The notes under the pieces are model-generated. The model had not been told where the DNA came from and did not search any database. It saw only the letters and a program-made list of their open reading frames with translations. A stretch of DNA of 63,758 bases, counting the filler, from Malassezia furfur (taxonomy: Eukaryota), in NCBI GenBank assembly GCA_052055015.1. It is 5 parts of 5 records of this genome, joined end to end, with 100 filler letters (N's around TTAATTAATTAA, not from the genome) between each part and the next. Parts side by side here need not be neighbours in the genome. Positions count along the whole stretch, not along the records: positions 1 to 12,754 come from JBQJIT010000328.1; 4 more parts are not named here. One strand, 5' to 3'. This document shows positions 9,678-10,655 of this stretch, piece by piece. How positions within the stretch are numbered: the first letter of the stretch is position 1; each line of letters opens with the position of its first letter. A program made the position numbers and the translations under genes.

Positions 9678-10390
9678 CTACGAGGTGCGGATTTGTTGGA
9701 ACTTGGCGTTCATCGCCTGAGAGATGTGTTCGTATACATCATCCACCGGCTTCGTTGCATCGACTTCGGCGACCACATCGCGCTTGCGGAGACAGTCGAC
9801 CACGGGCATACTCGTGTCCACAAAGGTGCGGAACCGCTTCTTGATCGACTCAATGTTGTCATCCGCACGGCCGCTGGTCTCGCCGCGTTGCAAGAGGCGC
9901 TTCAGCATGACCTCTTCCGTGCAGTACAGGAACAGCGTAAGCTGGGCAGGTACGACCTGACATGAGTACAATCGACGTACCGTTTCCTCGAATTTGAACA
10001 GCTGGTCCAACTTACGAGGGAAGCCGTCGATGAGGAAGCGACCGTGACCATGGCCCCAACCTTCCTTGTTCGAGGTATTGTTAGACTCGATGGCCTCCTG
10101 GATAGCGTTGCGCAGCAGGCCAATGGTCACCTCCATCGGCACAATCTTGCCGTCCTTGATGTACTCGGCAATCATTGCACCGTACTGCGAGCCCGGGCGT
10201 GCCTGCTCGGCACGAAGGAGATCTCCGGCTATGTGTCAGTTAAATATGGCGTACCGCTCAGGTGCTGGAAGCCATAATCGCGCACGAGACGGGCACACTG
10301 CGTGCCCTTACCAGAGCCGGGGCCGCCCAAAACAAACACCACGACCACCTGCTTGGCGTCGTACTCAGGCGCGGAGTTTTGCGAGCTCAT
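9678..10390 (-). CDS. URA6: UMP-CMP (uridylate) kinase
   Basis: [63 protein letters not shown]. Introns at 10229-10254 (26 nt) and 9957-9980 (24 nt, in frame). Confidence 0.93.
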
Positions 10391-10655
10391 GTTTTTCTTG
10401 TTCCGTACGAGGTGCAGGAATCAAGGGATTGGGAATCGGAGTTCGTTTTTCGCGGGTCGACGTGCGGTTCTCCACGTCGCGCTTCTTGGTGATGTACGTA
10501 AGGGCCCAAACGGAAGCAGCGGCTAGGCCTACAAAGCTTAGGATCGGATAAGCAGCCGAGGACGTGGGTCGAGCAGGTGGTTTCGGAGCACCTGCCAGCG
10601 CGCGCGTACTGGTCGAGAAGCGACGTTCGGAAAGAAGCCTTGCGAGGGTTCGCAT
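10365..10655 (-). CDS. 96-aa ORF with mitochondrial-presequence-like N-terminus and one TM helix, overlapping the URA6 start out of frame
   Basis: [21 protein letters not shown] (Arg/Ser-rich, acid-poor), hydrophobic [20 protein letters not shown], then basic TKKR. Confidence 0.6.

Follow-up and report, generated by a model that had tools for sequence, protein, structure and literature searches.

The window analysed here is a stretch of 63,758 nucleotides (nt) of DNA from Malassezia furfur (GCA_052055015.1). Within its part JBQJIT010000328.1 lies a locus at which a small open reading frame (ORF) on the minus strand, which we call ORF1, runs into the beginning of a gene of the UMP-CMP/adenylate-kinase family, the P-loop N-terminus of which has the length expected for URA6. 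We take this downstream gene to be URA6, and not another adenylate-kinase paralogue, going by the yeast protein. An earlier reading of the locus, made from the DNA alone and referred to below as the sequence-only reading, had proposed that the two overlapping frames are linked by a +1 slip and act as a dual-localisation switch. Our comparisons argue that ORF1 and URA6 very probably encode two separate proteins without any recoding, and the layout of the locus suggests a tightly packed gene pair that is probably co-transcribed. The parts of the pair, followed by its surroundings, are these:

10365..10655, minus strand: ORF1, encoding a small protein of 96 amino acids (aa); an ATG-initiated frame with homologues
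10367-10365, minus strand: TGA stop codon of ORF1, from the sequence
10365..10390, minus strand: ORF1/URA6 overlap of 26 nt, holding the 3' end of ORF1 in frame 0 and the 5' end of URA6 in frame +1
10255..10390, minus strand: URA6 exon 1, with the ATG at 10390 and the P-loop GGPGSGKG; from Pfam ADK and the splice model
10229..10254, minus strand: putative URA6 intron 1, 26 nt, GTACGC...CTGACACATAG; from the reading frame and comparison with the uninterrupted gene of a metagenomic relative, L001
9981..10228, minus strand: URA6 exon 2, from the splice model
9957..9980, minus strand: putative URA6 intron 2, 24 nt, GTACGT...TCAG; placed in the same way as intron 1
9678..9956, minus strand: URA6 exon 3, with the stop TAG at 9680-9678; from the splice model
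10656..10762, no strand: spacer of 107 nt from the ORF1 ATG to the ATG of a FAM32A-like gene, the sole non-coding DNA upstream of the pair
10763..11171, plus strand: FAM32A-like gene, divergent, whose first exon begins MSSPYTFKPGGALKLKG; from Pfam FAM32A
9537..9621, plus strand: tRNA-Lys(UUU), convergent, 56 nt past the URA6 stop; from a tRNA call

The geometry described by the sequence-only reading holds. ORF1 extends from 10655 to 10365 on the minus strand and ends in AAA CAT GAG CTC GCA AAA CTC CGC GCC TGA; the URA6 ATG at 10390 lies 26 nt inside it in the +1 frame, 265 nt after the ORF1 ATG; and a three-frame translation agreed that the URA6 frame is closed by a TGA at 10423-10421. The overlap (10390-10365) encodes a lineage-specific ORF1 tail, ...HELAKLRA.

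Under a by-eye splice model with two inferred introns, URA6 gives a product of 220 aa. The Pfam family ADK (PF00406, cut-off 26.8) matched both exon 1 (34.5 bits, E=2.7e-8) and the C-terminal piece of the gene (65.6 bits, E=7.2e-18). Both putative introns open with GTACG, and their lengths of 24 and 26 nt agree with the mean intron length of 30 bp that the consulted passages of PMC5389616 give for Malassezia sympodialis. The URA6 gene of L001 carries neither of the two; it has instead one intron of ~25 nt near its 3' end (about 4672-4696).

The 107-nt spacer is presumably a bidirectional promoter together with a short ORF1 5' untranslated region (UTR), because the pair has no other non-coding DNA upstream of it. 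The ORF1 5' UTR thus has an upper limit of about 107 nt. A minus-strand ATG at 10733 in the spacer opens a 14-codon frame that is in frame with ORF1 and ends at a TAA at 10691-10689; it is relevant only for transcription that starts upstream of 10733. On the far side of the spacer, Pfam FAM32A matched the piece 10840-11046 of the divergent gene (24.3 bits, cut-off 22). At the other end of the locus, the tRNA-Lys(UUU) was called at 85 nt, above the standard tRNA length, and it probably has an intron inside.

The ORF1 protein and its family

The existence of conserved protein homologues places ORF1 beyond chance, and judged by them it is a genuine gene whose small protein product is conserved. 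A word-indexed protein search (12 candidates) gave one relative, P0002 (67% identity), beyond ORF1's own product, and the identical 96-aa product is recorded for two contigs. Using phmmer against 1.84 billion representatives, we found seven proteins at E≤0.001, including P0003 (96 aa, 59-60% identity, E=3.5e-25) and P0002 (E=3.7e-24). Of 4119 candidates, 26 proteins matched a profile of six members at E≤0.01. Each of them stands alone, with a called length of 60-124 aa, and any extra length sits at the N-terminus. The sequence-only reading had let its proposal depend on the upstream frame being conserved, and with 26 profile matches it is. Named sources were Malassezia equina, Ustilago nuda, U. 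hordei, U. tritici, Sporisorium graminicola, Thecaphora frezii and Pseudomicrostroma glucosiphilum, and no ascomycete-named protein was present among the 26 matches. Two of the seven phmmer matches, P0004 (1127 aa, 7 stretches) and P0006 (a 279-aa tandem-repeat protein), were excluded from the alignments as repetitive and unlike the ORF1 family; P0023, apparently P0015 with an internal deletion, was excluded too.

An alignment of 25 sequences revealed a common order of elements, from a variable basic N-terminus (often with R-x-[YF]-S/T) through a P-N-P-type turn and the helix GFxxLAxxAFGAFAY to REKRIPHPNPLIPPR, which is almost invariant and particular to the ORF1 family. Residues P37, R71, N76, P77, L78 and P80 are invariant. 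The C-terminus is short in most members: 22 of 25 end within a few residues after PNPLIPPR, and P0002 ends 8 residues before the ORF1 of the window. Longer tails occur in the window ORF1 and P0003, which share one, and in P0029 and P0030, which have unrelated ones.

The presequence-like N-terminus and single helix noticed in the sequence-only reading were recovered here, and the mitochondrial targeting that we predict is called on these same features. Residues 1-34 are basic (seven lysine or arginine, one aspartate or glutamate) and contain nine serine or threonine residues; residues 38-56 are hydrophobic, with a mean Kyte-Doolittle value of 1.75; and the tail after the helix is charged (11 lysine or arginine, six aspartate or glutamate). 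Motifs of the R-x-[FY]-[ST] type mark presequence processing; RRFS stands at residues 11-14 of ORF1, and RxYS/RxFS-like motifs recur among the homologues. Taken together, the features point to a putative location of the ORF1 product in the mitochondrial inner membrane. A language-model feature search had generic small mitochondrial membrane proteins as neighbours (0.82-0.92), with ESSS/NDUFB11, COX7B and NDUFC1 as the nearest named clusters (0.82-0.86); both results serve as leads only. Pfam gave no match at E≤1 for ORF1 or any of the 25 members, and a PDB search with the family profile returned 0 matches at E≤10.

The family belongs to no curated family, and its members are mostly annotated as hypothetical and misnamed once. 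Those from Ustilago, Sporisorium, Thecaphora and Pseudomicrostroma carry the name 'hypothetical protein'. The misnamed record is P0013, an 82-aa Malassezia equina protein called 'UMP/CMP kinase', which is a member of the ORF1 family and has no kinase domain. It probably owes this name to the adjacent URA6, and the name is only a hint that ORF1 and URA6 are neighbors in M. equina too. At least one Malassezia annotation used a 300-bp ORF limit, according to the passages of PMC5389616 that we used, and the ORF1 family falls under that limit. Another oddly labelled record, P0036 (146 aa, labelled Cichorium endivia), shares a 90%-identity cluster with smut-fungus-like members and is likely a fungal contamination of a plant assembly.

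The ORF1-URA6 junction in a relative

A metagenome scan with the 25-sequence alignment yielded three loci, L001-L003, in which both genes are present; an earlier scan with a two-sequence alignment had produced 185 pattern matches, none of them confirmed. The three loci are essentially one sequence: L001 equals L002 over 3700-5000, and L003 is identical in the aligned junction region. They are Malassezia-like, with a guanine-plus-cytosine (GC) content of 46.5% compared with 61.1% in the window, and an identity between L001 and the window of ~44% in ORF1 and 63-81% in the URA6 exons.

In L001 the small ORF (3920-4165) encodes 81 aa and is terminated by two successive in-frame TAA codons. The URA6 ATG follows at 4171, after a gap of 5 nt. 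This start lies 251 nt from the ORF1 ATG and hence in frame +2, and a TAA 18 nt upstream of it closes the URA6 frame. The aligned junction reads GAA TAA TAA AA ATG in L001 and GAA CAA GAA AAA C ATG in the window. The window has CAA and GAA where L001 has its two stops, plus one extra base; with both stops absent and one base added, ORF1 reads on to a stop inside URA6. This alignment indicates that the 26-nt overlap is a lineage-specific accident. The gene order (divergent FAM32A-like gene, ORF1, URA6, tRNA-Lys) is kept in the window and in L001-L003, and the spacing from ORF1 to URA6 is -26 nt in the window and +5 nt in L001. The comparison indicates that what has been conserved is ORF1 lying directly against URA6, and not the overlap or frame relation of the two.

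The same comparison bears on the proposals that would make one protein out of the two frames. A programmed +1 frameshift at GCC-TGA-G or GAA-AAA-C would produce a membrane-anchored mitochondrial URA6 beside the soluble form. The frames of the window do overlap at a +1 offset with a stop-adjacent site present, and P0003, from another species, is also 96 aa long with a similar tail, so the overlap may be sub-clade-wide. Against this, L001 has a +2 offset, two TAA codons with a 5-nt gap, and a URA6 frame already closed 18 nt before the ATG, and it contains neither GCC-TGA-G nor the other proposed slip site. P0002, the closest relative, stops sooner, like 22 of the 25 aligned members, and no fused protein turned up among longer proteins (333 candidates for an ORF1-URA6 fusion, 0 at E≤0.01), which is weak evidence. 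Folding of the 90 nt after the TGA gave -36.8 kcal/mol compared with a shuffle mean of -33.45 (z=-1.07), and 32 of 200 shuffles were as good. The sequence-only reading had pointed to a conserved +1 offset and slip site as the thing to look for in an alignment; between the window and L001 neither is conserved, and we regard the frameshift, with the dual-localisation switch built on it, as highly unlikely. Hardly more credible is a single gene that has been split in appearance by a 1-nt assembly error or a hidden intron. A single-base indel within 10365-10420 would join the frames, and introns in the window may be as short as 24-26 nt. However, an assembly error is unlikely because two contigs have precisely this 96-aa product recorded and a second species has a 96-aa, long-tailed homologue (P0003); moreover, the ORFs of L001-L003 are separated by two stops and the homologues stand alone. 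The assembly error that the sequence-only reading had offered as one alternative is therefore improbable, but its other alternative, a separate microprotein on a bicistronic mRNA or on one from an alternative transcription start site, fits the data.

Candidate introns that would join the two frames were also inspected. Among the candidates listed, those of the GT..AG type were at least 76 nt long and deleted the most conserved ORF1 residues, and the short ones (19-67 nt) had GC donors only. The sequence-only reading had found no short frame-joining intron either, and none of the listed candidates is credible.

Transcription and translation of the pair

Because there is no room between the two ORFs for a terminator and a promoter, the ORF1 mRNA must enter URA6; the nearest non-coding 3' region that it could use is the 56 nt after URA6. 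The ORF1 mRNA would run into, and most likely through, URA6, giving a structurally bicistronic RNA. On this RNA a fraction of the 40S subunits would start at the poor-context AUG of ORF1 and make the small protein, and the remaining subunits would scan 262 nt free of AUG and start at the good-context AUG of URA6. That this account holds as a whole, with separate proteins, a shared transcript and leaky scanning as the mechanism, seems to us slightly short of an even chance. Its central step, in which leaky scanning on the shared transcript accounts for most of the translation of URA6, we likewise place at about the point of balance, or just below it.

Start-codon context and the sequence between the two starts point toward such a mechanism. 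At position -3, ORF1 has C in the window and T in L001, and URA6 has A in both; the background at the first ATG of 29 Pfam-backed ORFs of the window is a purine in 21 (A in 14, G in 7, T in 4, C in 4). From one start to the other, none of the three frames has an ATG, over 262 nt in the window and 248 nt in L001; among stretches of matching length taken from long ORFs, only 567 of 16991 (3.3%) in the window and 34 of 2110 (1.6%) in L001 lack ATG. Methionine (Met) is absent after the inferred start from all 25 family members (0 in 2132 residues), and it makes up 2.5% of window proteins. The short ORF1 5' UTR would fit leaky scanning as well.

Several observations weigh against leaky scanning. 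Shuffling the ORF1 codons gave ATG-free sequences in 43% (window) and 56% (L001) of 10000 shuffles, which means that the depletion of ATG reduces to a Met-free ORF1 protein. The members of the family are related, so their Met counts are not independent, and 11.8% of ordinary 95-aa stretches are Met-free. A pyrimidine at -3 is also found at 8 of the 29 other first ATGs, and two species with a weak context are weak evidence. The adjacency of the two genes comes from two Malassezia-like lineages only, inside a block that is syntenic anyway. Tight spacing is found elsewhere in the window as well. A protein kinase stop lies 71 nt from the first ATG of a cytochrome c haem lyase gene (3744-3820, minus strand), and the stop of a synaptojanin-like gene (Syja_N + Exo_endo_phos2) lies 46 nt from the first ATG of NDH2 (42982-43033, minus strand); both spacings hold if translation truly begins at the first in-frame ATG of the downstream gene, and only Pfam-backed long ORFs were used. 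Leaky scanning is impossible at such long-gene pairs, which implies that internal or very close promoters are common. Finally, as far as the consulted passages of PMC4503453 go, the downstream genes in the polycistronic transcripts of Agaricomycetes have transcripts of their own besides.

Plain compaction would account for the locus with less. URA6 transcription would start inside the ORF1 coding region, the two genes would give overlapping monocistronic mRNAs, and the ORF1 mRNA would end in or past URA6, carrying a downstream cistron without useful translation. We hold this to be a substantial possibility, though one we would not favor outright, and a serious, close rival of leaky scanning. 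It draws on the other tandem pairs of the window, only 46 and 71 nt apart behind long upstream genes, and on the fact that ATG depletion is within ORF1's own composition. It also draws on M. sympodialis, in which, by the passages used of PMC5389616, coding sequence fills 6.72 of 7.79 Mb (86%) and genes merge via long or overlapping UTRs: 249 genes were merged into long-UTR neighbors without peptide data, and run-through transcription is mentioned. Compaction leaves unexplained, however, the combination of a weak ORF1 and a strong URA6 start context in both species as well as the Met-free ORF1 family, and at 5 nt or -26 nt the two genes lie closer together than the other pairs seen. A different use of the shared mRNA is coupled termination-reinitiation, in which ribosomes that have terminated on ORF1 would resume translation at the URA6 AUG close by. 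In both species no more than 26 nt separate the stop of ORF1 from the start of URA6, and a proximity of such order supports coupling in some viral mRNAs, but their relative position is not conserved (the AUG lies 26 nt upstream of the stop in the window and 5 nt downstream of it in L001) and an ORF1 of 81-96 codons is long for reinitiation in cellular mRNAs. We consider reinitiation improbable.

A bolder form of the leaky-scanning account would make the pair an obligate, evolutionarily old dicistronic gene that produces a mitochondrial inner-membrane protein and a UMP kinase at a set ratio, with a pairing that extends beyond Malassezia, possibly to the small ORF in front of URA6 in S. cerevisiae. 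We think this unlikely. If true, the supply of pyrimidine nucleotides would be linked to the respiratory membrane, the site of class-2 dihydroorotate dehydrogenase, and the family-wide avoidance of Met codons in ORF1 would be a footprint of leaky-scanning translation.

Two further observations were made elsewhere in the window. An Rsa3-like stop-to-stop frame (15120-16073, plus strand) overlaps a class-II tRNA-synthetase ORF (15919-19494) by about 150 nt (15919-16076), which is either a coding overlap, or an unrecognised intron, or a later start. Two adjacent tandem ORFs for zinc-type alcohol dehydrogenase-like proteins (ADH_N + ADH_zinc_N; 38327-40946, plus strand) look like a local duplication.

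Significance and comparison with known systems

Should the pair prove bicistronic, it would provide a clean, conserved fungal case of a cellular mRNA that gives two unrelated proteins by leaky scanning, a class of bicistrons documented mainly in green algae and viruses, and it would add an unnamed small mitochondrial-type protein family to Ustilaginomycotina. If compaction is all that is at work, the locus would be a case of ordinary, though extreme, gene packing. Annotators may wish to note that the 82-aa record named 'UMP/CMP kinase' does not represent a kinase, and that URA6-based genetic markers in Malassezia overlie a second gene. A literature search, supplements aside, found no paper describing an ORF1-URA6 pair; the listed papers that mention Malassezia together with bicistronic constructs deal, judged by title and opening of the abstract, with engineered vectors or uses unrelated to this locus. 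In S. cerevisiae, YKL023C-A is presumably, going by the systematic names, a small same-strand ORF directly upstream of URA6, a parallel in position; the one paper found that names it lists it as uncharacterised.

As a protein, ORF1 resembles ESSS/NDUFB11, COX7B and NDUFC1 in its size, basic N-terminus and single helix, but it has no sequence match to them, and REKRIPHPNPLIPPR sets its family apart. As a gene arrangement, it shares with antizyme-type +1 frameshifting a first ORF that ends in a sense codon and UGA, and a downstream frame at +1. Unlike in the antizyme type, the site, the offset and the overlap are all absent in the relative, no stimulatory structure was seen, and no fused homologues were found. 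We rejected an antizyme-like recoding site, since offset, overlap and shift site are not conserved.

The polycistronic transcripts of Agaricomycetes likewise place tandem genes of basidiomycetes under one RNA (PMC4503453). Their conservation weakens outside Agaricomycetes, and the text passages of that paper considered here contain no URA6 pair.

The green-algal bicistronic genes of Chlamydomonas and Auxenochlorella come closest. Within the passages of PMC11291117 that we drew on, they are translated by leaky scanning, and a change of the ORF1 context altered ORF2 output. Their first ORFs have median lengths of 291-357 nt, compared with 291 nt here, and the algal genes and the window have in common a short inter-ORF distance, a weak ORF1 Kozak context and no start codons before ORF2. 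The algal ORF1 is often a small mitochondrial protein, and the arrangement is conserved between species, as it is here. The differences are that an exclusive single transcript and the mechanism were shown experimentally in the algae, whereas the window pair is known from DNA alone, and that the pair has a 26-nt overlap in one lineage and belongs to a basidiomycete yeast in which even unrelated long genes lie very close together. By these likenesses, the ORF1-URA6 pair would appear to work most like the algal bicistronic genes, and less like the Agaricomycete polycistronic transcripts.

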